Source of the DNA: Candidatus Pacearchaeota archaeon | GTDB taxonomy: Archaea; Nanobdellota; Nanobdellia; Pacearchaeales; GW2011-AR1 | Direction: 5' to 3' | Assembly (NCBI GenBank): GCA_017609915.1 | Contig: JAFCDA010000002.1 | Span: 1 to 49,227 of the forward strand | Length of the DNA: 49,227 nucleotides | In this document: one piece after another, positions 1,035 to 38,537 of the stretch | Numbering within the stretch: position 1 is the stretch's first letter | Layout: each line of letters opens with the position of its first letter | Position numbers and translations under genes: made by a program | Notes under the pieces: generated by a model | Told to the model about the DNA's origin: nothing | Seen by the model: the letters and a program-made list of their open reading frames with translations, nothing else | Databases searched by the model: none

Positions 1035-2647
1035 TTTATTTTTCCCTCCTTATCTTTATTATTTAAACCAAAACCACCCATCATAAATTTACTAACCACA
1101 TCTTGTTCTTCTTTTGATAATTTACCTCTTTTTTCAGCATCTTCACTAGCCCTTTTAGGAACCCCTTTAGCAAAATCTTCAATCTTTTTTCTTCTTTGTT
1201 CAGGTAATTCAGATTCATAAGTTTGCTCATAATCCTTTAATACTTTTTCTTCTTCACTAGCAAGGGACTCTGCCCCTTTCGTAACCCCAAATTCTTTTTC
1301 AGGTTCTTCTTTTTTAGTTTCTAGTTTTGTAACTTCTTCAATAAACTCGCTCATTTCTTGTTCAGGAGTTTTCATTTCATCTTTAAATTTAGAAGCACTA
1401 ATCTCCTCACCTAAAGAAGGTTGAATTTCCTCAGATTTTTCTTCTATAAAAGATTTTATTTCTTCAATTTCTTCTTTTTCAATAGGCTGAAGATGTTGGG
1501 ACTCTTGTTTAGAAGCATATTTTTTAAGTGTAGCTTCTGCATCCACAATCTTTCCTCTATTCAATTTTCCAAAAGGGTCATGCCTTAATTTAACTCTTTT
1601 AATTACCTTAGTTTCAAAAGAATCTAAAAGATATTTCCTATTCAAACCAATCCCATAACCTCCTTGCTTTGCCTTTACTCTTTTAATTAATTTAATTACC
1701 TTATTTTTTTTATCTGTTTCATTATCTTTAAAAAAAGGGCGGATAATTCCTGCTCCTAAAAAACCAAAATAAGGAATTTGATGCCTTTCTAAGAGCAAAA
1801 TAAATTCTTTTAATTTATCAAAGAAAAATTTGTGGTCTTCACTATTATAATATTCTTCAGCATAAAGAGCAGAACAAACATCTTCTTTTAATTTTGATAC
1901 AAGTTCATACTTGTCTCCTTTAATCTTCCCTCTATCTGAATCAAACCCTATTATCATATTGTATTTTTCCTTAAAACCTAATAATTTTGATACCTTTGGT
2001 GAGAAAAACTCTAGCATAACAACCTCTTTTTCTAACTTTAATCTGCGTGCAATTGATAAGGCTTCATCTAAATTTTCTGTTTGAAAAATCGATGCACTTT
2101 TTTTAACCTTAGGTATAATTCTCAGAGTAGCAGCAACAATAATTCCAGTAATTCCCTCCATACCGCAAACATCCATTAAATCTGCTTTACTTGTTTTCAT
2201 TAATTCTCCTCTTCCATTAACAAATTCTATTTCTTCTATCAATTGTTTTATTGCTTCATATTTCAATCCTCCAGAAGCATTTTTAGCAATCATTCCCCCA
2301 ATTGTAGAAATTCCATGATTAAAAGAAGACATAGGAAACTCAAATCCTGCAGCATTCAGTTTTTCATTTAATTCTTTTAATGTAACTCCTGCCTCAGCCC
2401 TAACTGTTTTTTTAACAGGATTAAAACCAGAAATATTATTCATTTTTCCCATATCAAGAACCAAAGAATTATCAGGAATACATCCCCCAACTAAACCAGT
2501 ACCTGCACCTCTTGGAACAACATCTAATTTAGCTTTTTTAACCAGTTCTTGAACTTCCTCTATTTTTTTAGGAAAAGCTACTTTCTCTGCTTTTCCAATT
2601 AAACGCGAGGCATCAGTATTATAGCAGGTTATTATTTTTTTATTCAT
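1031..2647 (-). CDS. FAD-binding oxidoreductase (GlcD / D-lactate dehydrogenase family) with an acidic/Lys-rich C-terminal tail of about 160 aa
   Basis: PRGAGTGLVGG FAD-binding (FAD_binding_4-like) motif in the N-terminal half. The C-terminal third is low-complexity E/K-rich sequence. Confidence 0.75.
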   Translation of the reverse strand: MNKKIITCYNTDASRLIGKAEKVAFPKKIEEVQELVKKAKLDVVPRGAGTGLVGGCIPDNSLVLDMGKMNNISGFNPVKKTVRAEAGVTLKELNEKLNAAGFEFPMSSFNHGISTIGGMIAKNASGGLKYEAIKQLIEEIEFVNGRGELMKTSKADLMDVCGMEGITGIIVAATLRIIPKVKKSASIFQTENLDEALSIARRLKLEKEVVMLEFFSPKVSKLLGFKEKYNMIIGFDSDRGKIKGDKYELVSKLKEDVCSALYAEEYYNSEDHKFFFDKLKEFILLLERHQIPYFGFLGAGIIRPFFKDNETDKKNKVIKLIKRVKAKQGGYGIGLNRKYLLDSFETKVIKRVKLRHDPFGKLNRGKIVDAEATLKKYASKQESQHLQPIEKEEIEEIKSFIEEKSEEIQPSLGEEISASKFKDEMKTPEQEMSEFIEEVTKLETKKEEPEKEFGVTKGAESLASEEEKVLKDYEQTYESELPEQRRKKIEDFAKGVPKRASEDAEKRGKLSKEEQDVVSKFMMGGFGLNNKDKEGKIK

Positions 2648-2663
2648 ATTTTATTTCTCCATA

Positions 2664-2740
2664 TCTCTATAAATCTTTAAGTTATACAAAGAGTTCTTTC
2701 TTCTCATCTTCATATCTCCCTATGCTTATCAGATACTAGT
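2664..2740 (+). repeat. Dispersed intergenic module, copy F
   Basis: tctctataaatctttaag...ctcatcttcatatctccctatgcttatcagatactag. See the finding on the module family. Confidence 0.4.
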
Positions 2741-2748
2741 TTACTTAT

Positions 2749-3561
2749 CTAAACCTCCACTTCATCATAATCTTCTTCTAATTCTTCTTCTATAAATTCT
2801 TCTGGAATTTCTTTTTCCTTTATTTTAATTCCTAAAGCTTTTGCCAAGACTTCTGAAAATTCTAAAACTTTCATATCAAACTCTTCAGCATTTTTGTTTA
2901 ATAATTGATGATTCTTTAAAGAAGAAACAATTATATTATTTATACCAATTCTTTTAGATTGTAAAAGTCTTTGTTTTGCAATTTCATCTGCTAATTTAGG
3001 ATTAATTCTTGTTAATCCACCACAACTTCCACAACACATACTATTTTCTTTTGAATCTGGAATTTCTTTTATTTCATAACCAATTAGTTCTAAAATCCTA
3101 CGAGGAGTATTATAAATTCCACAATATCTTCCTAAATAACAAGAATCATGATAAGTAACTAATTTCATAGCTTGATTTTTAATTAAACGAGGTTTATTCT
3201 CTAATTTTTCTAAAATAATTTCCCATAAATTCTTAACTTCTATGTCCCAATCAGGAAGCATTTCAGGATAATCTTGTGAAAACATTTTATAACAAGCAGG
3301 ACATGCAGTAATAATCTCATTAATCCCTTGTTCTTTAAAAATCTCAAAATTCCTTCGTGCTAACTTTCGAGCCTCAACCTCATAACCTGCTTCAAAAGCA
3401 GGAAGCCCACAACAAATTTTCTTATCTATAATCTTAAAACCAATTCTAAGCTTAGAAAAAATCTTTTTATATAATTCAAAATTCTCATTAAATTTAAAAT
3501 ATGTTACACAACCTGGAAAATACAGTGTATTGCTTGTTTTAAATCTTGAAAACAGACCCAT
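2749..3561 (-). CDS. Cysteine-rich (CCG) domain Fe-S oxidoreductase subunit (GlcF C-terminal / HdrB / LutA-like)
   Basis: Two CCG-type repeats are visible (..KICCGLPAFEAGY.. and ..MCCGSCGG..) with conserved Cys spacing. Confidence 0.75.
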   Translation of the reverse strand: MGLFSRFKTSNTLYFPGCVTYFKFNENFELYKKIFSKLRIGFKIIDKKICCGLPAFEAGYEVEARKLARRNFEIFKEQGINEIITACPACYKMFSQDYPEMLPDWDIEVKNLWEIILEKLENKPRLIKNQAMKLVTYHDSCYLGRYCGIYNTPRRILELIGYEIKEIPDSKENSMCCGSCGGLTRINPKLADEIAKQRLLQSKRIGINNIIVSSLKNHQLLNKNAEEFDMKVLEFSEVLAKALGIKIKEKEIPEEFIEEELEEDYDEVEV

Positions 3562-3587
3562 TTTTATTATTTGATTATTTATCTATT

Positions 3588-3663
3588 TCTATAAACTATA
3601 AGCTTTGAAGATGAATAGCTTAAACTTATCATCTGTATCTCTCTAGGTTTTATAAAATACTAG
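3588..3663 (+). repeat. Dispersed intergenic module, copy A
   Basis: tctataaactataagctttgaagatgaatagcttaaacttatcatctgtatctctctaggttttataaaatactag. Confidence 0.45.
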
Positions 3664-3776
3664 TTATTTGCTTAATTATTAGTATTAATTATAGAAGATT
3701 TCGGTTTTAAAGCATATATATATTAAAAAGGATATTTTTAAAAACACAACATAATTAACAAAATCATGACAATAAT

Positions 3777-3856
3777 GCCCGCATGGCACAGTGGTACTGC
3801 ACAAGATTGGAAATCTTGGTCCTTTGGACTCCCAGGTTCGATTCCTGGTGTGGGCG
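3777..3856 (+). tRNA. tRNA-Ser (anticodon GGA), class II with a long variable arm; CCA not encoded
   Basis: Hand-folded. Acceptor stem GCCCGCA/TGTGGGC, anticodon stem CAAGA/TCTTG, loop TTGGAAA (anticodon GGA), 13-nt variable arm GTCCTTTGGACTC, T-arm CCAGG-TTCGATT-CCTGG. Confidence 0.8.
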
Positions 3857-3861
3857 TTATA
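3844..3861 (+). repeat. attL-like direct repeat (3' end of tRNA-Ser plus 5 nt)
   Basis: tggtgtgggcgttata (3846-3861) recurs exactly at 10696-10711. Extended to 18 nt, 17 positions match. Confidence 0.6.
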
Positions 3862-3932: not shown

Positions 3933-4166
3933 ATGAAAATAGACCCATATAAACACGAAGAGAAGTACTTGAATTGGAAGGCTAAGCTTAATGGAAGTCT
4001 TCCTGAAATACGTGAATTTAATTCTAAAAGAATCTTAGATTACATATTTGATATGGAAAAAGGCATTAATATTGCAATGGGAAGTAAAAAAGGAGCAAGA
4101 AGCTATCCAAGATTAAATAATCTAAGACAGAGGAAGAACAATTATTCTCCTTTTTCTCAAAAATGA
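3933..4166 (+). pseudogene. Tyrosine-recombinase (integrase) N-terminal fragment, truncated after about 70 aa
   Basis: MKIDPYKHEEKYLNWKAKL...MEKGINIAMGSKKGARSYPRLNNLRQR resembles, from memory, the N-terminus of archaeal site-specific integrases. No catalytic domain follows. Confidence 0.4.
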
Positions 4167-4169
4167 GAA

Positions 4170-4424
4170 ATGGGGAGATTAAAACAAATCTTTTCAGCTT
4201 TAGACAATGAATATAGGTTGAAGATAATTAAATTGTGTTCTAATAAAATTTACACAGTTACAGAGTTGAGTAAGCTTTTAAAATTGAATTATAGCATAAC
4301 CGTAGAATATACAAGTATGCTTGAAAAAGTAGGTTTACTTCAAAAAACCAGAAATGAAGATAGAACTGCCAGTGTTAAATCATTGATAAGAATTAATAGT
4401 AATGGTGAAATTAAGAGAATTTAG
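4170..4424 (+). CDS. ArsR/SmtB-family winged-helix transcriptional regulator
   Basis: 84 aa. LDNEYRLKIIKLC...YTVTELSKLLKLNYSITVEYTSMLEKVGLL is an HTH pattern. Confidence 0.65.
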   Translation: MGRLKQIFSALDNEYRLKIIKLCSNKIYTVTELSKLLKLNYSITVEYTSMLEKVGLLQKTRNEDRTASVKSLIRINSNGEIKRI

Positions 4425-5061
4425 AATTCTTTACTTCACACCAATAAGCAATATCTGTAAGAGGTTGAATATCTCCTTTTAAACCTGCTTTATCTAATAT
4501 TTTTTCTAATTTCTCTCTATTAAATCTTTCAGAAACTAACCCTTCTCTTAGAAAAACATAATTTTCATCTTGATGTTCAATTATTAATCCATTTTGCTTT
4601 AACATATTAAGATATGATGGTAAAACATTTTCCGAAAAAACACTAAGATAAATATTTCCCTCTGGCTTAACAATTCTTTTTGCTTCTTGTAAAACTTTGT
4701 CTCTTACAGAATATAAGTTTCCAAAAGTATTCCAAAGCATAAATACATGATCAAATTTAGAATCCTTAAAATGCATAGATTTGGCATCTTCTAAGTAAAA
4801 TCTTACATTTTCATTTCTTTGTAATATTTTTCTTGCCTGATTCAATAATCTTTCGCTAAAATCAATTCCAATTACTTCATCAGCAACGCCAGAAAGTATT
4901 GCTGTACTTCTTCCACTTCCGCATCCAATATCTAAAACTCTTCCTCCTTTGATTGATTCTCTGGTTTTATCCTGTTCCACTTCTAAGTATCTTTGGAATG
5001 GTTCTGTTTCATTTAAGTTCTCAAAATAAGGACTATCGTAAAATATTTGTATAGGGTTCAT
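4411..5061 (-). CDS. Class I SAM-dependent methyltransferase
   Basis: VLDIGCGSGR (motif I) and DHVFMLWNTFGNL (post-I/II-like) motifs. 216 aa. Confidence 0.8.
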   Translation of the reverse strand: MNPIQIFYDSPYFENLNETEPFQRYLEVEQDKTRESIKGGRVLDIGCGSGRSTAILSGVADEVIGIDFSERLLNQARKILQRNENVRFYLEDAKSMHFKDSKFDHVFMLWNTFGNLYSVRDKVLQEAKRIVKPEGNIYLSVFSENVLPSYLNMLKQNGLIIEHQDENYVFLREGLVSERFNREKLEKILDKAGLKGDIQPLTDIAYWCEVKNSKFS

Positions 5062-5102: not shown

Positions 5103-5134
5103 CTATTTTCTTACAAATACGAAAGATTTATAAA
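5103..5134 (+). promoter_or_regulatory. Conserved promoter/operator block (copy 1) with the TATA box TTTATAAA
   Basis: ctattttcttacaaatacgaaagatttataaa matches 8873-8904 at 29 of 32 positions. The TATA box ends 22 nt before the ATG at 5156. Confidence 0.5.
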
Positions 5135-5155
5135 TAATCTTCTTATATGTACAAT

Positions 5156-6115
5156 ATGAGATTAGATAAGATAGATTTGAAAATTTTGCATGAACTTGAT
5201 CTTAATTCAAGAATTTCTTTAAAAAAACTGTCAAGTATCACAAAATGCTCAAAGAGTAAAGTACAATATAGAATAAATAGATTAATCAAAGAGAAAATTA
5301 TAGATTTTTTTTATACTATTATTAATTTCAATAAATTAGGGTATACACAATATAAATTATATTTTAAATATCACAATACAGATCCTAATAAAGAAAAAGA
5401 TATAATATCTTATTGGGCAAAAGATAAAAATTCTGTTTGGGTTGGATCTCTTAGGGGAGGTTGGGATTTGGGAGTATCTTTATTATGTAAAAATGAAGTA
5501 GAGTTAGCAAAAGTTATTAGAAAATTCATGTATAAATACTCTAAATTTATTTTTAGTAAAGTTGTTTTTATAACAGAATATTCTCCAGTATTCACAAGAT
5601 CTTTTTTAGAACCAGGAAAAGAGAAAAAACACTTTAAATATTCCTTAAAAAAAGAAGAAATAAAAATAGACCCTACTGATAAAAAAATTTTACAACATTT
5701 ATCAAACAATGCTAGAATTTCTATAGAATCACTTTCAAAGTTAGTTAAAAAAGATAGGGATACTATTGCTTATAGAATAAAAAAATTAAAAAAATTAGGT
5801 ATTATCGCAGGTTTTAGGATACATCTTAATCTTAATAAACTAGGATATAAAATATATAAAATTCTTTTAAATTTTAAAGGATTGGATGAAAATAATGAAG
5901 AAAAAATTGTAGATTATATTAAAAAACATAAATTCGGAACACAATATTTAAAATTAATCGGAAGTTGGGATGCGGAATTAGAATTTGAAATGGAAGAAGG
6001 AGATGAGATTTATGAACATCTAGGAAAATTTAGAGAAGAATTTGGTCAATTAATAACCCAATATGAAATTATCTTAATTTCAGATAACTATAAGTTAAAT
6101 TATTATCCCTTTTAA
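5156..6115 (+). CDS. Tandem (double) Lrp/AsnC-type transcriptional regulator, paralog 1
   Basis: Two HTH modules (DKIDLKILHELDLNSRISLKKLS.. and DKKILQHLSNNARISIESLSKL..), each followed by a RAM-like segment. The start at 5156 was chosen by alignment with the paralog and by TATA spacing; the ORF track starts at 5147. Confidence 0.65.
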   Translation: MRLDKIDLKILHELDLNSRISLKKLSSITKCSKSKVQYRINRLIKEKIIDFFYTIINFNKLGYTQYKLYFKYHNTDPNKEKDIISYWAKDKNSVWVGSLRGGWDLGVSLLCKNEVELAKVIRKFMYKYSKFIFSKVVFITEYSPVFTRSFLEPGKEKKHFKYSLKKEEIKIDPTDKKILQHLSNNARISIESLSKLVKKDRDTIAYRIKKLKKLGIIAGFRIHLNLNKLGYKIYKILLNFKGLDENNEEKIVDYIKKHKFGTQYLKLIGSWDAELEFEMEEGDEIYEHLGKFREEFGQLITQYEIILISDNYKLNYYPF

Positions 6116-7563
6116 AGAACTTCTTTTAAGTACTTTTGAAACTCATTAAATGCCTGTTCACTTTTTGGATCTCCTTCATACATTACTTTCATTCTTGTTT
6201 TATAATCATCTGAGAAATATAATTTAAGAACATTCTTTCTAGCTTCTATTAGTTCTTTAGGTGTTGCTTTGCTTTTAATTACAGGTCTATCATTAGTAAG
6301 CATAGACCATTTTCTTTTATATCCATCTAACCAAAGATTTTCTCTTTCAACTTTATCATAAAGTCTTGTTCCTGGATAAGGAGTCAAAAAAACAGCCCTT
6401 ATTCTACTAAATGGAATTTTTTTAACAAATTCTAAGTCCTGCTTTAAATCTTCTGATGTTTGTTCCGGATATCCCAACATATAATATAATCCTAAATGTA
6501 TATCATGACCTGTAATTTCATTTGAAACAGAAGGCAAAGTAGAAATTTCATACCCTTTTCCAATTGAATTTAATATCTGCTGATTTGTTGTTTCCATTCC
6601 AAGTGTAACTTCACAACAACCACTTTCTCTTAATAAATCATAATCGCTAAATTTAGATGCAGATCTAACACTCCCCATAACATGATATTTAACTTTAATT
6701 CCTCTTTTAACTATATCTTCCGCAATAGACCTACACCAATTTTGATTTGTAAGAAAATCATCATCTCCAAAGAATACAAAATTTACACCCTTATCTTCAA
6801 CAAGATGCTCTAACTCATCTACAACATTTTCTGGAGATCTATATATTATTCTTCTCCCCCATATAGAATTACTTGAACAAAAACTACAATCATTCCAACA
6901 ACCTCTTGATCCAACTAACATAGCAAGACGCATATCAGAATGAGGAACTGAATGAGGTATTTGTTTTGCAAAAAAAGTTTTATAATCTTTAGTTGGATGT
7001 ATTAATTTAGTATCAATTGAATTAAGTTCTTCTGATGTTAATCTCCTTTGTTTTTTAGTTTTAACAATCTTTTCTCCATCAAAAAAAGCAATCCCTTCTA
7101 ATGAATGAGGATCTAAAGAATTTTTTAGATTATTAACTAAATTAAAAAAAGTTTTTTCACCTTCTCCAATAACTACATAATCTACACATCCTTCCTTAAG
7201 AACTCTATCATAATAATTGGTTGCCTGTGGCCCTCCCCAAACAATTCTTATATCTCTATTAGCATCCTTTAATTTTCTACTAAATCTTTTTGATGGTTCA
7301 TAATTACTTGCCATCACAGATAATCCAATAACACTAGGATTTTCGGATAATATTTCTTGTATACTTGAAGAATTATGTTTAACTTGAACATTTAATCCAT
7401 TCTGATTTGCATAAGCACTGATATATTCTATTCCAATAAATTCACAGGATTCATTACTACTTACTATCCCTGTTTTGTCTTTATCTTGATCTAATCCTAA
7501 GAGAGTTATTTTTTGCATTTTATCTCCCAATTCTACTCCTTGTTTATAATTTGATAAAGACAA
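6112..7563 (-). CDS. B12-binding-domain radical SAM enzyme (class B, methyltransferase-like)
   Basis: N-terminal Rossmann-type B12-binding region (..VIGLSVMASNY..IVWGGPQATNY..VVIGEGE..) followed by a CWNDCSFC (CxxxCxxC) cluster motif. Confidence 0.8.
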   Translation of the reverse strand: MSLSNYKQGVELGDKMQKITLLGLDQDKDKTGIVSSNESCEFIGIEYISAYANQNGLNVQVKHNSSSIQEILSENPSVIGLSVMASNYEPSKRFSRKLKDANRDIRIVWGGPQATNYYDRVLKEGCVDYVVIGEGEKTFFNLVNNLKNSLDPHSLEGIAFFDGEKIVKTKKQRRLTSEELNSIDTKLIHPTKDYKTFFAKQIPHSVPHSDMRLAMLVGSRGCWNDCSFCSSNSIWGRRIIYRSPENVVDELEHLVEDKGVNFVFFGDDDFLTNQNWCRSIAEDIVKRGIKVKYHVMGSVRSASKFSDYDLLRESGCCEVTLGMETTNQQILNSIGKGYEISTLPSVSNEITGHDIHLGLYYMLGYPEQTSEDLKQDLEFVKKIPFSRIRAVFLTPYPGTRLYDKVERENLWLDGYKRKWSMLTNDRPVIKSKATPKELIEARKNVLKLYFSDDYKTRMKVMYEGDPKSEQAFNEFQKYLKEVL

Positions 7564-8636
7564 TCTGTTCTTGATCCATCAGGTTTCATTTTATGCATGG
7601 GCCCACCATGACAATAGTCCCACTCTCCACAACTCTGGCAATCTTCTGTTTTTTTCCATTCAAACTTCCTATACTTCTGATATTTATTATCCCAAATATC
7701 TCTTATTCTGTCTTTTCTTAAATCTCCCTCAAAACCAAACTCCCTAGGAATGTTTGAACATGCAGCTAATTTTCCATCATATAAAATTCCAAGATTATTA
7801 ATTCCAGCGACACAATGAAAAATAAAAGGTCTAATAGTTCCTTCAATATCTTTTCCTAACCATCCACCACACCCTAATTCGACCATTGTTTCATTTGAGT
7901 TTCCATATTTTTCACAGTTATCTGCATATTCTCTTTGCAAAAAGCTTATCACTTCTTTTGTTTGATTTGAAGATAAAAGATATTCTTTATTAAGATCTGC
8001 TCTACCTAAAGGATCTATAGTCATTACTCTAAATGTTCTTGGTCTAATTTCTCTTTTTACAGATTCATATAATTGTGGAATTTGATCAACATTCTTTGCA
8101 TGAGCAACAGTAGAAACAGTTACAGTCAATCCTTCATCAACAGCACTTTTAGCAGCTTTTACAGCTAAATCATAACTTCCCCTCATTCCCCTAAAAGAAT
8201 CATGTGATTCTCTATCTCCATCAATACTAACCCCAATTCCTGTAACTCCAAATTTTTTTAATTTTTTAATTAAATCAGAATTTTTTCCAAGAACAACTCC
8301 ATTAGTTTGAATATCAATATTTCTGTAATGAGGGCTTTGACTAATATTTTCTAAAATATAAGGCAAATCTTTTCTAACTAATGGCTCTCCACCAGTTATA
8401 TTTACATGTCTAAAATGAGACATATCAAAATCCTCTTCTATCTGTTTAAATGCTCCTATAACTTCTTTAGAAGATAATTCTTCAGGCAATTGTACTGCTT
8501 CAGAAGGAGATCCACAATGTTTACAACTAAGATTACATTTTCTTGTTGCTTCCCAACTAATAATTTGAAGGGGATGACCTTCAATTAAATTTTCTATATT
8601 AGATTTCCAATTACAAAAATTATTTTCTAATTCCAT
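7533..8636 (-). CDS. Radical SAM enzyme with a C-terminal SPASM/twitch-type auxiliary-cluster domain
   Basis: CNLSCKHC (CxxxCxxC), GGEPL, then C-x12-G-x4-C (CVAGINNLGILYDGKLAAC) and CQSCGEWDYC. Overlaps the downstream B12-rSAM gene by 31 nt. Confidence 0.8.
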   Translation of the reverse strand: MELENNFCNWKSNIENLIEGHPLQIISWEATRKCNLSCKHCGSPSEAVQLPEELSSKEVIGAFKQIEEDFDMSHFRHVNITGGEPLVRKDLPYILENISQSPHYRNIDIQTNGVVLGKNSDLIKKLKKFGVTGIGVSIDGDRESHDSFRGMRGSYDLAVKAAKSAVDEGLTVTVSTVAHAKNVDQIPQLYESVKREIRPRTFRVMTIDPLGRADLNKEYLLSSNQTKEVISFLQREYADNCEKYGNSNETMVELGCGGWLGKDIEGTIRPFIFHCVAGINNLGILYDGKLAACSNIPREFGFEGDLRKDRIRDIWDNKYQKYRKFEWKKTEDCQSCGEWDYCHGGPMHKMKPDGSRTDCLYQIINKE

Positions 8637-8650
8637 TTTTAAGAAGAAAC

Positions 8651-8815
8651 TTACTTAGCGTAAATAGTTCTAAAGTAGTCACTATCGTCGTCTCCTGGAT
8701 GGCTTCCATACATGTTATTAACATATTCTACTGGATTTTGCCAATTTAGCATTCTCTGCTTGAACAACTGAACTTTGCTATCTTTAGTTTTTTCAGCTAT
8801 GTTTTCTAATTCCAT
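8651..8815 (-). CDS. Small ORF (54 aa): candidate precursor peptide of the radical-SAM operon
   Basis: Not in the ORF track. MELENIAEKTKDSKVQLFKQRMLNWQNPVEYVNNMYGSHPGDDDSDYFRTIYAK. A GGAGGA box lies 7 nt upstream of the ATG, and the stop lies 14 nt before the rSAM/SPASM start. Confidence 0.5.
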   Translation of the reverse strand: MELENIAEKTKDSKVQLFKQRMLNWQNPVEYVNNMYGSHPGDDDSDYFRTIYAK

Positions 8816-8872
8816 ATTTCTTCCTCCGTTGTAAATACAGAAATATATGACACATAATTAATACTTATTACT

Positions 8873-8904
8873 CTATTTTCTTACTTATACGCAAGATTTA
8901 TAAA
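8873..8904 (+). promoter_or_regulatory. Conserved promoter/operator block (copy 2) with the TATA box TTTATAAA
   Basis: ctattttcttacttatacgcaagatttataaa. The TATA box ends 25 nt before the ATG at 8929, which suggests a leaderless mRNA. Confidence 0.5.
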
Positions 8905-8928: not shown

Positions 8929-9888
8929 ATGGTAAAATTAGACAAAAAAGACAAAAGAATCCTAACTATGTTAGATGAAAATGCTCGCTATAGCAATAGC
9001 CAAATTGCAAGAAAAGTAGGGTTAAGTAAGCCTGCTGTTGAATATCGCCTTAAACGATTTGAAAAAAATAAGATCATCTTTCAATATTATACAGTTATTG
9101 ATATTACTAAATTAGGGTTTTCACAATATAAAATATACTTTAAGTTTCAAAATACAGATTTAGAAGATGAAAAAAGAATTGTGGATTATTGGAATAATAA
9201 TAAAAATTCTGTTTGGGTTGCTCAGATAAGGGGTAATTGGGATTTAGCAGTTTCCATATTAGCAAAATCAAATTTTAAATTTGGAAAGATTCTTAATCAG
9301 TTTATGAATAAATTTTCTAAATTTATTCTTCTAAAAGATGTATTATTAACAGAATATTCTCCAGTTTATGCAAGAGAATATTTAACAGAAACAAAACCTT
9401 CTGAATTTATTTATGGAATTCCAAGTAAAATCTATAAATTAGATGAAATAGACCAAAAAATCTTAAAAGAGCTCTCAAAAAATGCAAGAATAAATATTGT
9501 GGATTTGGCTGAGAAAACTCATTTAACTAGAGACACTATAAGTTATAGAATAAAAAAATTAACTAAAGAAAATATAATCATTCAATTTAGAACTTATCTT
9601 AATCTTCATAATTTAGGGATAAATCATTATAAAGTTATTTTTAGAACTAAGAATTTTGATCAAGAAGCTGAAAACAAAATTAAACAATATGTCTCAAACC
9701 ATAAAAAAGTTACTCAGTTTTTAAAGCTGATTGGAAGTTGGGATTTAGAAATTGAGTTTGAAACAGAGAATGAGGATGAACTTTACAAGATTTTAACTGA
9801 TATAAGAAAAAAATTCTCCAATATAATCAGAGATTTTGATATTTTGAGAATAACTGAGACTTATAAATATGATTATTTCCCATTTTAA
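8929..9888 (+). CDS. Tandem (double) Lrp/AsnC-type transcriptional regulator, paralog 2
   Basis: Collinear with 5156..6115 at roughly half identity by eye. Shared blocks include NKNSVWV, TEYSPV, LKLIGSWD and the C-terminal Y-x-Y-FPF. Confidence 0.65.
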   Translation: MVKLDKKDKRILTMLDENARYSNSQIARKVGLSKPAVEYRLKRFEKNKIIFQYYTVIDITKLGFSQYKIYFKFQNTDLEDEKRIVDYWNNNKNSVWVAQIRGNWDLAVSILAKSNFKFGKILNQFMNKFSKFILLKDVLLTEYSPVYAREYLTETKPSEFIYGIPSKIYKLDEIDQKILKELSKNARINIVDLAEKTHLTRDTISYRIKKLTKENIIIQFRTYLNLHNLGINHYKVIFRTKNFDQEAENKIKQYVSNHKKVTQFLKLIGSWDLEIEFETENEDELYKILTDIRKKFSNIIRDFDILRITETYKYDYFPF

Positions 9889-10553: not shown

Positions 10554-10706
10554 ATTTATCTTAGGACTTATTTCTTTACAATTTTCCAAAAGAAATTCTG
10601 AGGGTTCTGCACCTCTCCAGTAGCAAGCAACTTTTAAAAACCTTAAATCACTTATTTTATCAATAAACAACGGCGTTATTATTTTTCTGAACGCTTGGTG
10701 TGGGCG
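10554..10706 (-). pseudogene. Possible tyrosine-recombinase internal remnant (no start codon)
   Basis: The open frame RPHQAFRKIITPLFIDKISDLRFLKVACYWRGAEPSEFLLENCKEISPKIN resembles recombinase box I (..tGxRxSElxxL..) with the Arg replaced by Glu. The frame opens inside the att repeat. Confidence 0.25.
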
Positions 10707-10711
10707 TTATA
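10694..10711 (+). repeat. attR-like direct repeat (copy of the tRNA-Ser 3' end)
   Basis: cttggtgtgggcgttata versus cctggtgtgggcgttata at 3844-3861. Confidence 0.6.
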
Positions 10712-12119: not shown

Positions 12120-12146
12120 ATTATGCGAAAGCAGGAGAAAAACAAA

Positions 12147-12311
12147 ATGCCAGGACAAGATAGAACAGGACCTGAAGGAAAAGGGCCTAAAACAGGAAGG
12201 CAAATGGGAAATTGCAAAGGAGCAAAACCAATTGCAGGAAGAAGACTTGGAAGGGGCTTAGGTAGGGGAAGGGGTTTTGGAAGAAGAACTCAAAACCAAA
12301 AAACAAAATAA
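12147..12311 (+). CDS. DUF5320-family small Gly/Arg-rich protein
   Basis: MPGQDRTGPEGKGPKTGRQMGNC...GRGLGRGRGFGRR. AGGAG lies upstream of the internal ATG; the ORF track starts at 12123. Confidence 0.6.
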   Translation: MPGQDRTGPEGKGPKTGRQMGNCKGAKPIAGRRLGRGLGRGRGFGRRTQNQKTK

Positions 12312-12312
12312 A

Positions 12313-12783
12313 ATGCCAAGACCTTGTATAAAAAGAAGAATTAGAGGACGCCCAAACTCTTATTATTTTAAACCTGCAGGAATAAGAATAATAGAATTAG
12401 AAGAAACTACATTAAACATGCCAGAATTTGAAGCAATAAGATTTGTTGATTTTAAAAACATAGAACAGAGCAAAGCAGCAAAACAAATGCAAGTATCACA
12501 ACCAACTTTATCAAGAATTTTAACATCTGCAAGAAAAAAAATCTCAGATGCTATAATCAATGGAAAGGCGATTAAAATTCAAGGAGGTGATTATAAAATG
12601 GTTCAGCCAACAAGAAAAGGTGCAGGAAGAAGAGCTGGCAGAGGAAGAATGGGTGGCTTTGCAGCAGGTCCGGGAGGAGATTGCATCTGTCCAAAATGCG
12701 GAGCAACAACAACCCATCAAATAGGAATTCCTTGCAACAAACAAAAATGTCCTAAATGCCAAAGCCTTATGACAAGAAGATAA
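12313..12783 (+). CDS. DUF134 (UPF0251) putative DNA-binding protein with a C-terminal Cys4 zinc-ribbon-like tail
   Basis: MPRPCIKRRIRGRPNSYYFKPAG...EFEAIRFVDF..QSKAAKQMQVSQPTLSRIL, followed by CICPKCG...CPKC. The internal start follows directly after the DUF5320 stop. Confidence 0.7.
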   Translation: MPRPCIKRRIRGRPNSYYFKPAGIRIIELEETTLNMPEFEAIRFVDFKNIEQSKAAKQMQVSQPTLSRILTSARKKISDAIINGKAIKIQGGDYKMVQPTRKGAGRRAGRGRMGGFAAGPGGDCICPKCGATTTHQIGIPCNKQKCPKCQSLMTRR

Positions 12784-34979: not shown

Positions 34980-37900
34980 TCACTTAAACAACTCCTTCGC
35001 TTTCCTCTCAATTTCTAAATCTAAATTAGCCTTTTTTTTATCAAATTCTTTTTGTTTAGCCTTAATTGCAGCCCCTAACTTATTATCAAATTCATCCCTT
35101 AACTTTTTTCTAATAACCGAAGATTGTTTAACAACCGTGGACTTAATAGCTTGTTTTTTATCTTGTTCTAATTTTTTCATTAACTGCTTTTTATAAAGAT
35201 TTTCGTTTTTCCTTATTTTTCTAATCTCAGAATTTAATTGATTTCTTATTCTTGAAACCATTGTTTTTTCTTTAGAAAGTTTGTTTTTTACTTGCTCAAT
35301 TCTTCTTTTTTCCTTGTCTTTCTTTTGAATATGCTGTTTATGAACTTTTTTAATTTCCTGAGTTAAATGTTCATACATTTTATTATTTAATGCTATCCTA
35401 TGTACCAGAATCTCATGATCAAAATGTTTTCTTAAATTTCTTTTTTCTTTAATTAAACTATCTCCATAAGTTCTCTCTAAATTAATTCTATTAAATTCAA
35501 ATTCTCGCTTTAACTTCTCTCTCATCTCTTCTATCTTTTTCTTAGAAATCTTAATTTTTTCTTCTATCTCTTTTTCTTTTAACTCTTTCTCTTTCTCAGA
35601 AGATATTTGAGTTTTTAATTTTTCATGTTTTTCAGATAAACTTTTAAGAATTTTATCCTGCTTTTTTTTCAAAACTGCTTTTTCTCTCTCTAATTTTCTT
35701 CTTATCTCTGCTTTGAGTTTACTTATTAAATCTATTTTTCTCTTATTTAATAATTCAACAAGCCTTTTTTGTTTTTCTTCTAATTCTTTTTTATGATTAT
35801 CTAACTTTTTCTGATTTTCAGTATTAATTTTTTCTCTTAATTCTGTTTCTTTTTTTACAAGTAGTTGCTTTTGTTTTTCAATATTCTGTGTTGACAATCT
35901 CTTCTCTCTTTCAATTCTTCTTTGTAAAATTCTATTTTGAGATTCTATCTTCTTATCTAATTGTTTTTCTTTTTCTTTCAAAAAAATTCTTTGTTGTTCC
36001 ACACTCTTTTTTAATTTATCATGATCTGATTCCAATATCTTTTTTTTATTTCCCAATTCTGCTCTTAATTTTTCTTCTTTTTGTTTTAAACCTCTATTTT
36101 GTTTTTCAATATTATTATTCAATTCCTGTTCTTTTCTTCTTAACAACTTAATTTTTTCTATTAATTTTGTTTTTATTTTTTCATTTTCTCCTATTAACCA
36201 ATCTTTTTCCTTACTTACTTTCTGATAAGCCTTTAAAGCAAATTCTTTTCTTGCTTTACTTAATTCATCCTTTAAATTAGATTCTAATTTTGCTTTAAGC
36301 TCTTTTTCATGTTCTTTTAATTTTCCTGCAGATTCAAAAGAAAGTTTTGCTTTAAGTTGTTTTTTCCTTTTTTCTAAATTTTGATTAGCTTTAGAATTTA
36401 AAATAAATTTTAATTTTTCCTCTTTTAAAATAAGCCTTTGAGAAGCTTCATATTGTCTTTTTGACAGTTTTTCTGCCCTTTCTTTAAATTTCTTTAATTT
36501 TTCTTCCTCTCTTTCTTTTAGTTCTCTTTTAGAAACATTAAGATGTATTTGTTTCTTTCTTTCTTTAGCAATCTCTACTTTTAATTTTTCATGTTCTTTA
36601 GATAAATTATTTAAAACTTTTTTTTCCTTTTTTCTCATTAATCTTTTTTTACCTGCTAATTCTTTTTCTTTCTGCAAATTCAATTTTTTAAACAAATCTT
36701 TCTTTTTTTGCTCAAACTTATCAACTTCTTTTTCTGTTTTTTGTTGTTGTATTTGTTTATGCTGTGATAATTTCTTTTTAAATTCAGAATTTAATCTTTT
36801 TCTTATTTCTTCTTCTTTTCCAGAAAGAAATTGATCCTCATCCCTTATTTTTTGATTTAAATCTTTTTGTTTTAAATCCAAAAGTTCAGTTCTTTTTTTA
36901 AGCTCTTTTTTTAATTTTTTCTGTTTTAATATCAACAAATTTCTTTTTATTTCTAAATCCTCATTTATATTTTTTTCTTTATTCTTTAACGCTTCCTTCT
37001 GACTTTTAATCTCTGCTTCTAATTCTTCTGCTTTTTCTTTTAAAAATTTCCTTTGTTTTCTTATTTGTTTTTTTGATTTTTCATCTTTTATCTTTAATTC
37101 ATTTCTTTCCCTAATTATTTCTTGAGAAGCTTGTAAAGCAAACTGATTTTTAAGTTTTCTCTCTATTTCATCTACTTCCTTATTTTCTTTATTTTCCAAA
37201 AGTCCTTTAAGATTCTTTTTCTCTTCAGCAAGTTCTTTTTCTAACTTTTGTTCTAATCTTTTTTGAAGTGTTTGTTTTTTATCAAACAGGATTTTAGCAT
37301 TTTCTCTTTTAAGTTCAGTTTGAACCCTGTTTTTCCTTTTTTCTAATTCTTTAAACTCTCTTGCATCCATAATCTTTCTTAATCTCTTTTTCTCATCCCT
37401 TATTTTTTTAAAACCTCTTTCAGAAAGTTTTTTCTTTATAATATCCTGTTCTTCTTTTAATTTATTTAGTCTTTCTTTTTCTATTGTTATTAATTGTTTT
37501 CTTTTTCTTTTTAATCTTTCAAAAGCTTCTTTTTCAAGTTGTTTCCTAAGAGCGATTATTCTATCTTTTAAGGCATTATTAAATCTATTTCTAATTTCTT
37601 TTTCTAAACAATCCTTAACTTTTTCTTCATATTTTTTATCAAATTTATTTTCTAAATTTTTATATTGTAATTTAAAATTCTCTTTCCTATTTTTTAAATC
37701 TCTTTGAAGTTTTTTCTGAATTTCTAATTCCTTGCTTTTTAATCTTTTAGATACTTCTATTTTAATGTCTTTCAAAGTTAGATTAAATTTATTATCTATA
37801 AGAAAACTGACTCCTGGGTCCATTTCCTTTAATAGCTTTTTCTTTATTATTTCATCTTCTTTTTGTTCTTCTACAAATCCTTGTAATGATTTTAATCTTT

Positions 37901-38537
37901 TATTAATTTTTGAACCTCTTTCAACAGGATTAATTTTTTCAGGTTTATATTTTCCTTTTATTTTTCTTTTTAAAATACTCATTTCTTTTTCAACTTGAGG
38001 AAGATAAGAAATATTTTTTAATTTAGAACGAATAGAATTTGCTTCTTTTTTCCAATTTGTAGTATCAAGCGTTTCTAATTCTTCCTTAATTTTTTCTACT
38101 TTTTCAACACCTTTACCAAAAACATTAAAATCCTTTCTCTTACGAGCTCCTTTTGTTTTATTTTTAATTCCTTTTTTCTTTAATTTTCTTTTTTTAACTC
38201 TGCTTGATTTTTTTCTTAAAGAATCCTCGCCCTTATTCTTTATCCTCGATTCTTTTAAGCCTTTAAGGGCTGCATTAACTATTTGTTTTTCAATGTTTTT
38301 TGTTGAATCAGATGCAACAATTAAATCATTTGATTTTATTTTTTTTCCAAGCAATAATCCTCCTAAATAAACTGCTTTTGAAGACTGTAAACTATTTTCT
38401 CCCTTATCTTGCCATCCCAAATTTAATAACTCTTGCGTATTTGAAGAACAAAGAACCTTGTTTCCACTTTTAATTTGTAGAATAACTGAATTCTTAGTTT
38501 TTTTAATTTCTAATTCGTTTTTAGATTTTATACTCAT
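34980..38537 (-). CDS. Giant (1185 aa) K/E/R-rich coiled-coil protein with an N-terminal uL18 (L18/L5e)-like domain
   Basis: Uninterrupted ORF. The first ~105 aa (KKTKNSVILQI..GNKVLCSSNTQELLNLGW..SKAVYLGGLLLGKK..ALKGLKESRI) are collinear with archaeal L18. The rest is heptad-like low-complexity sequence with internal duplications. Confidence 0.6.
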   Translation of the reverse strand: MSIKSKNELEIKKTKNSVILQIKSGNKVLCSSNTQELLNLGWQDKGENSLQSSKAVYLGGLLLGKKIKSNDLIVASDSTKNIEKQIVNAALKGLKESRIKNKGEDSLRKKSSRVKKRKLKKKGIKNKTKGARKRKDFNVFGKGVEKVEKIKEELETLDTTNWKKEANSIRSKLKNISYLPQVEKEMSILKRKIKGKYKPEKINPVERGSKINKRLKSLQGFVEEQKEDEIIKKKLLKEMDPGVSFLIDNKFNLTLKDIKIEVSKRLKSKELEIQKKLQRDLKNRKENFKLQYKNLENKFDKKYEEKVKDCLEKEIRNRFNNALKDRIIALRKQLEKEAFERLKRKRKQLITIEKERLNKLKEEQDIIKKKLSERGFKKIRDEKKRLRKIMDAREFKELEKRKNRVQTELKRENAKILFDKKQTLQKRLEQKLEKELAEEKKNLKGLLENKENKEVDEIERKLKNQFALQASQEIIRERNELKIKDEKSKKQIRKQRKFLKEKAEELEAEIKSQKEALKNKEKNINEDLEIKRNLLILKQKKLKKELKKRTELLDLKQKDLNQKIRDEDQFLSGKEEEIRKRLNSEFKKKLSQHKQIQQQKTEKEVDKFEQKKKDLFKKLNLQKEKELAGKKRLMRKKEKKVLNNLSKEHEKLKVEIAKERKKQIHLNVSKRELKEREEEKLKKFKERAEKLSKRQYEASQRLILKEEKLKFILNSKANQNLEKRKKQLKAKLSFESAGKLKEHEKELKAKLESNLKDELSKARKEFALKAYQKVSKEKDWLIGENEKIKTKLIEKIKLLRRKEQELNNNIEKQNRGLKQKEEKLRAELGNKKKILESDHDKLKKSVEQQRIFLKEKEKQLDKKIESQNRILQRRIEREKRLSTQNIEKQKQLLVKKETELREKINTENQKKLDNHKKELEEKQKRLVELLNKRKIDLISKLKAEIRRKLEREKAVLKKKQDKILKSLSEKHEKLKTQISSEKEKELKEKEIEEKIKISKKKIEEMREKLKREFEFNRINLERTYGDSLIKEKRNLRKHFDHEILVHRIALNNKMYEHLTQEIKKVHKQHIQKKDKEKRRIEQVKNKLSKEKTMVSRIRNQLNSEIRKIRKNENLYKKQLMKKLEQDKKQAIKSTVVKQSSVIRKKLRDEFDNKLGAAIKAKQKEFDKKKANLDLEIERKAKELFK

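Follow-up and report, generated by a model that had tools for sequence, protein, structure and literature searches.

A Short Peptide Gene Linked to One Radical SAM/SPASM Enzyme in DPANN Archaea and Bacteria: A Predicted Peptide-Maturation System

Radical S-adenosylmethionine (SAM) enzymes that carry a SPASM domain and act with a precursor peptide are a well-known general kind of biosynthetic system. Pairs of such an enzyme and a short peptide have yielded pyrroloquinoline quinone (PQQ), mycofactocin, and several classes of antibiotics. A recognition element for peptides that are made by the ribosome and modified after translation (RiPPs), the PqqD-like RRE domain, is common, yet not universal, in these peptide-maturase systems. 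Here we examined a stretch of 49,227 nucleotides (hereafter, the window) from a Candidatus Pacearchaeota archaeon (GenBank assembly GCA_017609915.1, contig JAFCDA010000002.1, positions 1 to 49,227). An initial annotation of this DNA had proposed that a 54-amino-acid peptide, a radical SAM/SPASM enzyme, and a B12-binding radical SAM enzyme are encoded in one operon for a radical-SAM-modified peptide. Comparative sequence analysis revealed that, in archaea and bacteria alike, the peptide gene is genetically tied to a single orthologous radical SAM/SPASM enzyme. We estimate with a probability of roughly 0.78 that the cluster serves as a dedicated system for maturing the peptide into a RiPP or a peptide-derived cofactor. 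The operon interpretation is thus supported, having survived both the test of conservation and that of family membership.

A peptide gene bound to one SPASM enzyme in two domains

The candidate precursor gene (8651-8815, minus strand) encodes 54 amino acids, with the sequence given initially, and has a GGAGGA Shine-Dalgarno sequence 6 nucleotides before its ATG. It is followed by the gene of the radical SAM/SPASM enzyme (7533-8636, 367 amino acids), which is the universal partner of the peptide, and by that of the B12-binding (class B) radical SAM enzyme (6112-7518, 468 amino acids). The open reading frame (ORF) coordinates placed these three consecutive, co-directional genes on the minus strand where they had been reported. 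Their spacing had been read as a 14-nucleotide gap and a 31-nucleotide overlap. The gap was confirmed, but the overlap is an artefact of extending the third ORF to a TTG at 7563: because orthologues align only from residue 16 of that longer ORF, the B12 enzyme starts at ATG 7518, which is preceded by GGGAGA, and both intergenic gaps are then 14 nucleotides.

In each of the first three orthologous contexts inspected, an ORF of 51-56 amino acids was found just 5' of the SPASM gene, and its product carried, like the window peptide, the motif NPVE.VNNMYG[CS]HP. All ORFs of at least 25 amino acids in the window and 32 further loci were then searched with a profile built from the peptide. Exactly one homologue was detected per locus, always 5' of the SPASM gene and on the same strand (33/33 orthologous loci), and it was immediately adjacent save in L003 and L013, where a radical SAM paralogue sits between the two. 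Conservation and adjacency of the small ORF in related genomes, on which the initial annotation had staked its proposal, were therefore observed in two domains. Since the peptide gene stands beside the SPASM gene in every related genome examined, it looks like the precursor of an enzyme-modified peptide or small molecule.

A database search with the peptide profile retrieved 433 clusters, all of them "hypothetical" and without Pfam domains, and an exhaustive HMMER search of 1.84 billion representatives gave 57 peptide matches at the level of 50% identity representatives, nearly all of 42-95 amino acids. That the exhaustive search closed at this number and within this size range shows the family to be compact and not a piece of some larger group of proteins. 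Beyond this closed family, the search brought up neither distant relatives nor telling fusions, the three long matches being probable gene-call fusions. The window peptide had no match among the Pfam, NCBIfam, and PHROGs models, and neither did 30 family members against NCBIfam at E-values up to 1. The invariant residues of the peptide core use all their synonymous codons (2-4 each, in 26 cores/loci), and such a spread beneath invariant residues indicates that selection acts on the translated product. On these comparative grounds, the small ORF is a real, translated gene tied to the SPASM enzyme.

The anatomy of the peptide was derived from 143 unique sequences, 139 cores of which were scored. 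A variable N-terminus of 15-35 residues is followed by a conserved stretch with the family consensus F-K-K-R-M-L-E-W, an invariant 14-residue core, N-P-V-E-[Y/F/L]-V-N-N-M-Y-G-[C/S]-H-P, an acidic or glycine-rich linker of 4-10 residues, and a C-terminal tail, Y-F-x-x-[V/I]-[F/Y]-x-K; conservation spans nearly the whole of the C-terminal 37 residues. The window peptide is built in the same way: its variable N-terminus leads into the helix FKQRMLNW, the invariant core NPVEYVNNMYGSHP comes next, and an acidic linker joins this core to a YFxxIY tail. An aromatic residue stands two positions ahead of the core Asn in 136 of the 139 cores (Trp in 122, Tyr in 8, His in 4, Phe in 2), and the Asn of this [W/Y/H/F]-x-N motif is present in 138. 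The residue after the core Gly is Cys in 120 cores (86%) and Ser in 19, all the Ser codons being AGY and thus one base off the Cys codons TGY; Ala was found at this position in one sequence (P0397). The peptide had initially been called Cys-free, which is true of the window peptide but is the minority state in the family. The argument built on it, that a peptide without Cys would not undergo thioether chemistry, is weak, because it does not generalise to a family in which most members have Cys at this position.

Several DPANN precursors of 81-92 amino acids carry two full units of the form R-[IM]-A...NPVE.VNN[MI]YG[CS]HP, followed by one tail. Repetition of a core unit is typical of substrates and counts toward the peptide being one. 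Two-unit precursors (78-92 amino acids, DPANN) comprise P0121-P0129, P0133, P0361, P0367, and P0393, the last of which has a first core unit that looks degenerate (NPVERVNNMDRYDP). The AlphaFold model of the peptide contains helices only, at low confidence (pLDDT 64, pTM 0.37), suggesting that it is not a folded domain.

The SPASM enzyme has all the motifs initially assigned to it, namely CNLSCKHC (C34/C38/C41), C275-x12-G288-x4-C293, and C333-x2-C336-x5-C342, and matches the Pfam domains Radical_SAM (73 bits) and SPASM (32 bits, cut-off 21.5), as expected for a radical SAM enzyme with an auxiliary-cluster domain. Its orthologues in archaea and bacteria are 58-82% identical. Ten Cys residues are kept in 66 of them, nine invariantly (C34, C38, C41, C256, C275, C293, C333, C336, and C342) and C359 in at least 90%; the seven conserved C-terminal Cys residues would be sufficient for two auxiliary clusters. 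No curated NCBIfam family cut-off is reached by this enzyme. The best model, TIGR04133, gave 224 bits (223.9) against a cut-off of 425, whereas the AhbD/NirJ models gave about 109 bits (cut-off 500 or more), PqqE (TIGR02109) 98.6 bits (381), and MftC (TIGR03962) 99.7 bits (265). The B12 enzyme likewise stays below every NCBIfam cut-off, so that membership in a known non-peptide family, which could have told against the operon, was found for neither enzyme, and the HMM searches proposed for the pair matched Radical_SAM, SPASM, and B12-binding domains in Pfam.

The AlphaFold model of the SPASM enzyme (pLDDT 79.7, pTM 0.80) shows a single helix ahead of the barrel, which suggests that the enzyme has no RRE domain. 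No Pfam PqqD match was found in the window, and no RRE was seen fused to the enzyme in the model or neighbouring it in the 33 loci. Foldseek placed SkfB, BlsE, MoaA, CteB, SuiB, PqqE, and the anaerobic sulfatase-maturating enzyme (anSME) nearest to the model (TM-score about 0.6, 16-20% identity); apart from MoaA and BlsE, these are mostly peptide maturases. The closest solved structures are of the generic SPASM/twitch type, at 17-20% identity.

To define the distribution of the pair, one genome per species was scanned, which yielded 29 orthologous SPASM loci at 55-78% identity, followed by a sharp fall to 30% or less. The pair occurs in DPANN archaea and about ten bacterial phyla. Archaeal carriers belong to Woesearchaeota, Pacearchaeota, Nanoarchaeia, and Iainarchaeum, and bacterial carriers comprise a SEEP-SRB2 deltaproteobacterium, Thermodesulfovibrionia, Phycisphaerae, Sedimentisphaerales, Thermoguttaceae, Planctomycetaceae, Zixibacteria, Armatimonadota, Cloacimonadales, Acidobacteriota, and Bacteroidetes. 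All 29 carrier genomes are metagenome-assembled or single-cell genomes.

Several further observations concern these two genes. The first 18 nucleotides of the SPASM gene (8623-8640) and of the peptide gene (8802-8819) are near-identical, both products beginning with MELEN. This likeness is absent in L001 (peptide MKENI, enzyme MVNEN), the single locus compared, and could reflect either a minor duplication at this site or coincidence. In P0396 (247 amino acids) and P0402 (193 amino acids), the peptide motif is fused to a domain with an RHG/RHA motif that resembles histidine phosphatase and stands once before and once after the peptide motif. These are probably gene-call fusions, pointing to another recurrent neighbour gene. 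More distant SPASM relatives (25-30% identity, L036-L086, in Clostridia, Bacilli, and Bacteroidota) were considered as further partners of the peptide and rejected. They do not have this peptide gene beside them but lie 3' of genes for a LemA-like protein and a 716-amino-acid protein, and in 20 of these loci an ORF of about 73 amino acids and low complexity is found just 5' of the SPASM relative; this arrangement is a different system, likewise unstudied.

Accompanying genes, regulators, and the tRNA-Ser island

The gene neighbourhood of the pair differs between the two domains. In DPANN archaea, the typical order is a divergent tandem Lrp/AsnC regulator, the peptide, the SPASM enzyme, an optional B12 enzyme, and an optional methyltransferase, and minimal clusters hold only the regulator, the peptide, and the SPASM enzyme (L015, L020, L023, L030). 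A Pacearchaeota variant (L003, the same in L013) has an extra radical SAM paralogue and a major facilitator superfamily (MFS) transporter. In L003 (4871-6013 and 7153-8577), the paralogue (380 amino acids, without a SPASM match) lies between the peptide and SPASM genes, and the transporter gene follows. A tRNA-Gly is located just outside this variant cluster, but no tRNA-end repeat was found there, so a second island is not supported. In L087, the closest relative of the window cluster, whose peptide is 85% identical, the gene calls split both the SPASM gene and the B12 gene into two fragments (1225-3743), which could be pseudogenes or assembly errors of the Logan contig.

The bacterial layout, seen in 14 loci, consists of a periplasmic binding protein, the peptide, the SPASM enzyme, a further protein, an optional and distant B12 radical SAM enzyme, and the LivHMGF genes of a Liv-type importer (two permeases and two ATPases). 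The binding proteins belong to Peripla_BP_6 and have lipoprotein or signal N-termini. The fast-evolving protein after the SPASM gene falls into four divergent subfamilies, in which no Pfam domain was detected.

The third gene of the window had been assigned to the class B radical SAM enzymes, and its product indeed has the motif CWNDCSFC together with B12-binding (PF02310, 66 bits) and Radical_SAM (PF04055, 64 bits) domains. Its best NCBIfam models are BchE (144.7 bits against a cut-off of 481.35) and several methylase families, none of whose cut-offs it reaches; the RiPP methylase model TIGR03975 gave 96.9 bits (281.85). The nearest solved structures, 9ccb (9e-11) and TokK (9e-6), are weak matches. 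About 17 orthologues were detected, all in DPANN (53-78% identity), the next relatives being down at 30%, and the contigs that carry them agree in length with those of the SPASM matches. So small a set of DPANN-only orthologues, tied to SPASM contigs, suggests that the B12 enzyme is a dedicated, lineage-restricted tailoring enzyme. Bacterial B12 radical SAM enzymes are only about 25% identical to that of the window. Its membership in the operon therefore holds for the window, but in the family at large it is a DPANN-specific add-on outside the universal core.

A class I SAM-dependent methyltransferase (4411-5061, minus strand, 216 amino acids; Pfam Methyltransf_25/11/31) had been noticed near the operon, and its orthologues (56-66% identity) confirmed that it belongs to the cluster. 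It lies directly 3' of the B12 gene, in one operon, in L001, L011, L012, and L088, and 3' of the SPASM gene in L007 and L010. In the window, an inserted Lrp paralogue parts it from the B12 enzyme. Judged by their occurrence, both the B12 gene and the methyltransferase gene count as tailoring genes, and both are restricted to DPANN.

The presence of a dedicated regulator was also borne out. A tandem (two-module) Lrp/AsnC regulator with two HTH_AsnC modules is encoded divergently to the peptide operon (8929-9888, plus strand). It is the partner conserved with the cluster in DPANN: 15 archaeal loci have a gene in the same divergent position, and the products in close relatives are 72-80% identical. 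The inserted gene between the B12 enzyme and the methyltransferase (5147-6115, plus strand) is a 47% identical tandem Lrp/AsnC paralogue, and L087 has the same gene order, this second paralogue included. The best solved relatives of the Lrp proteins are archaeal amino-acid-responsive Lrp/FFRP (feast/famine regulatory protein) regulators, not siroheme decarboxylase; no siroheme-decarboxylase Pfam domain was matched, and the NCBIfam models for AhbA/B scored 29 bits (cut-off 140) and 23 bits (cut-off 125). A 32-nucleotide element with a palindromic TTTATAAA box is located 5' of both Lrp genes, one copy in the divergent intergenic region between the peptide and Lrp genes (8873-8904) and the other, 91% identical, between the methyltransferase and the second Lrp gene (5103-5134). 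The peptide operon and the separated methyltransferase each face one copy, and the element is probably a shared, duplicated bidirectional promoter/operator.

The whole cluster lies on a small tRNA-integrated island, as had been suggested. A tRNA-Ser(GGA) gene was identified by ARAGORN at 3776-3857 (plus strand), and an exact 16-nucleotide repeat of its 3' end, TGGTGTGGGCGTTATA, occurs at 3846-3861 and 10696-10711 (plus strand; none expected by chance in 100 shuffles), so that the left border is formed by the tRNA with its repeat (3776-3861) and the right border by the second copy. The 6.85-kb island contains a 77-amino-acid ORF, an ArsR-like gene, the cluster, and a 160-amino-acid ORF. It thus has the flanking tRNA 3'-end repeats of a tRNA-targeted element; no integrase domain was detected inside it, the 77-amino-acid ORF beside the tRNA (3933-4166) having no Pfam or PHROGs match, and the element may be a decayed remnant. 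The G+C content of the island is not distinct from its surroundings. Integration on a small tRNA-Ser island fits the patchy spread of the system across domains.

The host is archaeal, as first assumed: the window encodes aIF5B, aIF2-gamma, and Kae1, and the closest named relatives of the cluster genes are from Nanoarchaeota and Woesearchaeota (DPANN). Outside the island, the window contains a 1185-amino-acid ORF without a Pfam match (34980-38537) and a 2033-amino-acid ORF (41004-47105). Both are unusual in composition, with a G+C content near 0.23 at 35-38 kb and near 0.35 at 41-46 kb, compared with about 0.28 elsewhere in the window. At 12123-12783, a Gly/Arg-rich ORF of 62 amino acids and the beginning of the gene for a 168-amino-acid DUF134 protein (with CxxC pairs at its C-terminal end) overlap, and an exact 17-nucleotide repeat, AGGAGAAAAACAAAATG, marks the start sites of two genes at 12133 and 12804.

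Predicted chemistry and alternative readings

If the cluster is a peptide-maturation system, the peptide would be the substrate of the SPASM enzyme, and its conserved helix may dock it straight onto this RRE-less enzyme. SAM would be cleaved at the cluster held by C34/C38/C41, and the resulting 5'-deoxyadenosyl radical would take a hydrogen within the invariant core; two auxiliary clusters, bound by the seven C-terminal Cys residues, could then take the second electron and complete a two-electron oxidation. The favoured site is the beta-carbon of the Cys or Ser (rarely Ala) in Y-G-[C/S]-H-P. Considering that Cys, Ser, and Ala have only the beta-carbon in common, their interchange makes a reaction centred on this carbon attractive. 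The outcome might be a three-residue cyclophane joining Tyr to the beta-carbon, as in triceptides (PMC11499958), or an oxidation of the formylglycine type, as in anSME. The aromatic-x-Asn motif just upstream is a second candidate site. In the DPANN branch, including the window, the B12 enzyme would then most likely C-methylate an unactivated carbon, and the class I methyltransferase may methylate a heteroatom.

That archaea and bacteria share an almost unchanged core favours a single conserved role for the product, for instance as a cofactor, a metal binder, or a signal, over that of a toxin under diversification. In bacteria the lipoprotein binding protein and Liv importer, and in DPANN the Lrp/AsnC regulator, suggest an amino-acid-like small ligand, which could be the product or a fragment of it. 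A tentative extension, which we consider possible but rather unlikely as a whole, is that the peptide gives rise to a peptide-derived cofactor, metal binder, or signal which has so far escaped description and would rank with PQQ or mycofactocin. DPANN and some ten phyla of uncultured anaerobic bacteria would then share its fixed core, its RRE-less SPASM enzyme would accept Cys, Ser, or Ala, bacteria would take the product up again by their dedicated Liv-type importer, and small integrative elements, of which the 6.85-kb tRNA-Ser island is an example, would carry the system from one domain to the other. If true, genome-reduced, host-dependent DPANN cells could exchange the molecule with their host.

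Some considerations weigh against a peptide-maturation system. Peptide modification is itself a prediction, and its chemistry is not readable from sequence. Conservation over 37 C-terminal residues is unusual for a RiPP core and would also be compatible with a small binding partner or subunit. Neither a protease nor an RRE nor an exporter accompanies the pair as a conserved neighbour, which leaves release and export of the product unexplained, and the ATP-binding cassette (ABC) importer linked to it in bacteria is not a normal need of a secreted natural product. The bacterial B12 enzymes, distant as they are from the archaeal ones, may carry out another step, and Ala at the Cys/Ser position rests on the single sequence P0397.

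The alternative closest to the proposed system, and in fact a sub-case of it, is that the SPASM enzyme is an anSME-like oxidase which converts the Cys or Ser of G-[C/S]-H-P to C-alpha-formylglycine, the aldehyde serving as a reactive or catalytic group. Anaerobic sulfatase maturation is the SPASM reaction known for accepting both Cys and Ser, and these residues interchange naturally at one position of the peptide (120 to 19, with AGY and TGY codons). The invariant Pro at +2 also recalls the sulfatase motif C/S-x-P-x-R. In addition, anSME (PDB 4K37) is the only solved structure whose sequence profile aligns near full length with the SPASM enzyme, and both are proteins of about 370 amino acids with a radical SAM domain, a full SPASM domain, and no RRE. 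However, the Arg at +4 in the anSME target (C/S-x-P/A-x-R) is replaced by D, G, E, or N and is never conserved. In the profile alignment, which is of low identity and moderately reliable, C293-S294 stands opposite C276-D277 of anSME; Asp277, the proposed catalytic base (4K37 numbering), is thus replaced by Ser294, which is itself near-invariant (at least 90% of 66 SPASM sequences). Sequence identity is only 16-19%, SkfB, BlsE, MoaA, CteB, SuiB, and PqqE rank level with anSME or above it in Foldseek, and no anSME model is among the top 25 NCBIfam matches. One member of the peptide family has Ala in place of Cys or Ser, and a dedicated peptide of 50-90 amino acids would take the place of a sulfatase as substrate; no sulfatase gene was found nearby in any cluster. 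Membership in the anSME family was therefore rejected for want of the motif Arg and of Asp277, and formylglycine formation, which these two features leave only partly supported, appears improbable.

Thioether formation is less probable still. A maturase of the sactipeptide or ranthipeptide type would link the Cys sulfur to the carbon of another residue, with Ser either forming an ether or being inactive. One conserved Cys is indeed present in 86% of cores, the nearest structures include SPASM/twitch enzymes that form thioethers, CteB and SkfB among them, and the StsB and AlbA models of NCBIfam are matched. On the other hand, Ser has repeatedly and independently replaced Cys in intact cores beside intact enzymes (the window, L005, L022, L029, P0133, P0231, P0390, P0410, and P0413). 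The Cys donor that sactipeptides and ranthipeptides require is thus limited to a single position, which holds Ser in 19 of 139 cores and Ala once, and the window peptide lacks Cys altogether. The sactipeptide models also score far under their cut-offs (73 against 625 and 67 against 850), and the characterised sactisynthases have an RRE, which is absent here.

No better placed is the view that the small protein is a subunit, chaperone, inhibitor, or regulator of an enzyme acting on a tetrapyrrole (as NirJ/AhbC/AhbD or BchE) or on an imported amino-acid-like compound. It would account for 37 conserved residues, which extend beyond a short core, and for an importer rather than an exporter in bacteria. 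The AhbD/NirJ scores of the SPASM enzyme (about 109 bits) are on par with those of PqqE and MftC (about 99), BchE is the best model for the B12 enzyme, and Lrp/AsnC-like neighbours are reminiscent of the siroheme decarboxylases AhbA/B. Against it, the core unit is tandemly duplicated within one polypeptide in some members, which is typical of substrates and not of subunits; no stable fold is predicted for the peptide; and the minimal clusters hold only the regulator, the peptide, and the enzyme. Because all Ahb, NirJ, and BchE scores are far below cut-off, by a factor of 4-5, and the Lrp neighbours match true regulators, the tetrapyrrole version was rejected as the main explanation.

Finally, the small ORF might have arisen by chance, or be without function, in the leader ahead of the enzyme gene, as its shortness, its absence from the ORF track, and its lack of a database family could suggest. 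This view is virtually incompatible with conservation in 33/33 loci, 433 database clusters, and a 14-residue core kept invariant under synonymous variation, which already refute it.

Comparison with described systems

What is new in the system considered here is the precursor family, the RRE-less enzyme clade, the spread across two domains including DPANN, the linkage to an importer, and the mobile island. Neither the motif nor the system was found in the literature by keyword and motif-string searches, whose scope excluded most subscription journals. Given that the peptide and both enzymes lie outside all curated families, and that these literature searches brought up no description, we regard the system as new, although it remains a prediction. 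Several of its features are unusual: archaea share one fixed 14-residue core with many bacterial phyla, all occurrences so far are in uncultured organisms, the bacterial copies are wired to an importer rather than an exporter, and two radical SAM enzymes and a methyltransferase are among the few biosynthetic investments of genome-reduced DPANN archaea. New precursor families have tended to reveal new chemistry, and this one is directly testable, since the genes are small and the predicted mass shifts simple; the natural Cys/Ser/Ala variants and two-unit precursors provide ready-made mechanistic probes.

In its general features, the pair resembles other radical SAM/SPASM maturase systems, having the CxxxCxxC motif, the SPASM Cys ligands, and an adjacent, co-directional, conserved peptide gene. 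Among curated families, TIGR04133 ("rSAM_w_lipo") is the most similar to the SPASM enzyme. The two align over their full length (residues 15-361 against 15-346 of 350, E = 2.6e-66), but the score is about half of the cut-off. The B12 enzyme shares with the class B RiPP methylases (TIGR03975) and BchE an N-terminal B12-binding domain followed by a radical SAM domain (CxxxCxxC), and its gene lies in a peptide-maturase operon; it differs in its scores below cut-off and in an orthologue group limited to the DPANN copies of the cluster.

Triceptides are three-residue cyclophanes in which radical SAM enzymes join an aromatic ring to the beta-carbon of the third residue (PMC11499958). The peptide family has three motifs of the corresponding form Aromatic1-x2-x3, namely [W/Y/H/F]-x-N, Y-G-[C/S/A], and H-P-[D/G], although motifs so short are unspecific, and the units that bear them are repeated in some precursors. 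The core is invariant here, not variable. Moreover, the maturase cluster of that study comes from bacterial genera such as Pandoraea and Ralstonia (PMC11499958), whereas the present family occurs in archaea and uncultured anaerobes.

The systems of PQQ (PqqA/PqqE) and mycofactocin (MftA/MftC) offer the broadest comparison. Both differ from the present system in their PqqD/MftB-type RRE, no counterpart of which is fused or adjacent here, and in that some precursors here have two core units. The E-x3-Y motif of PQQ precursors is absent from the peptide consensus, and no pqq genes, PqqB/C/F included, were found in any locus. The peptide ends with [VI]-[FY]-x-K, not with the Val-Tyr of mycofactocin precursors, and the loci contain no mft genes, MftD/E/F included. 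Nevertheless, all three systems have a short peptide gene directly 5' of a radical SAM/SPASM gene, a peptide core that is near-invariant across distant taxa, and a Tyr within that core.

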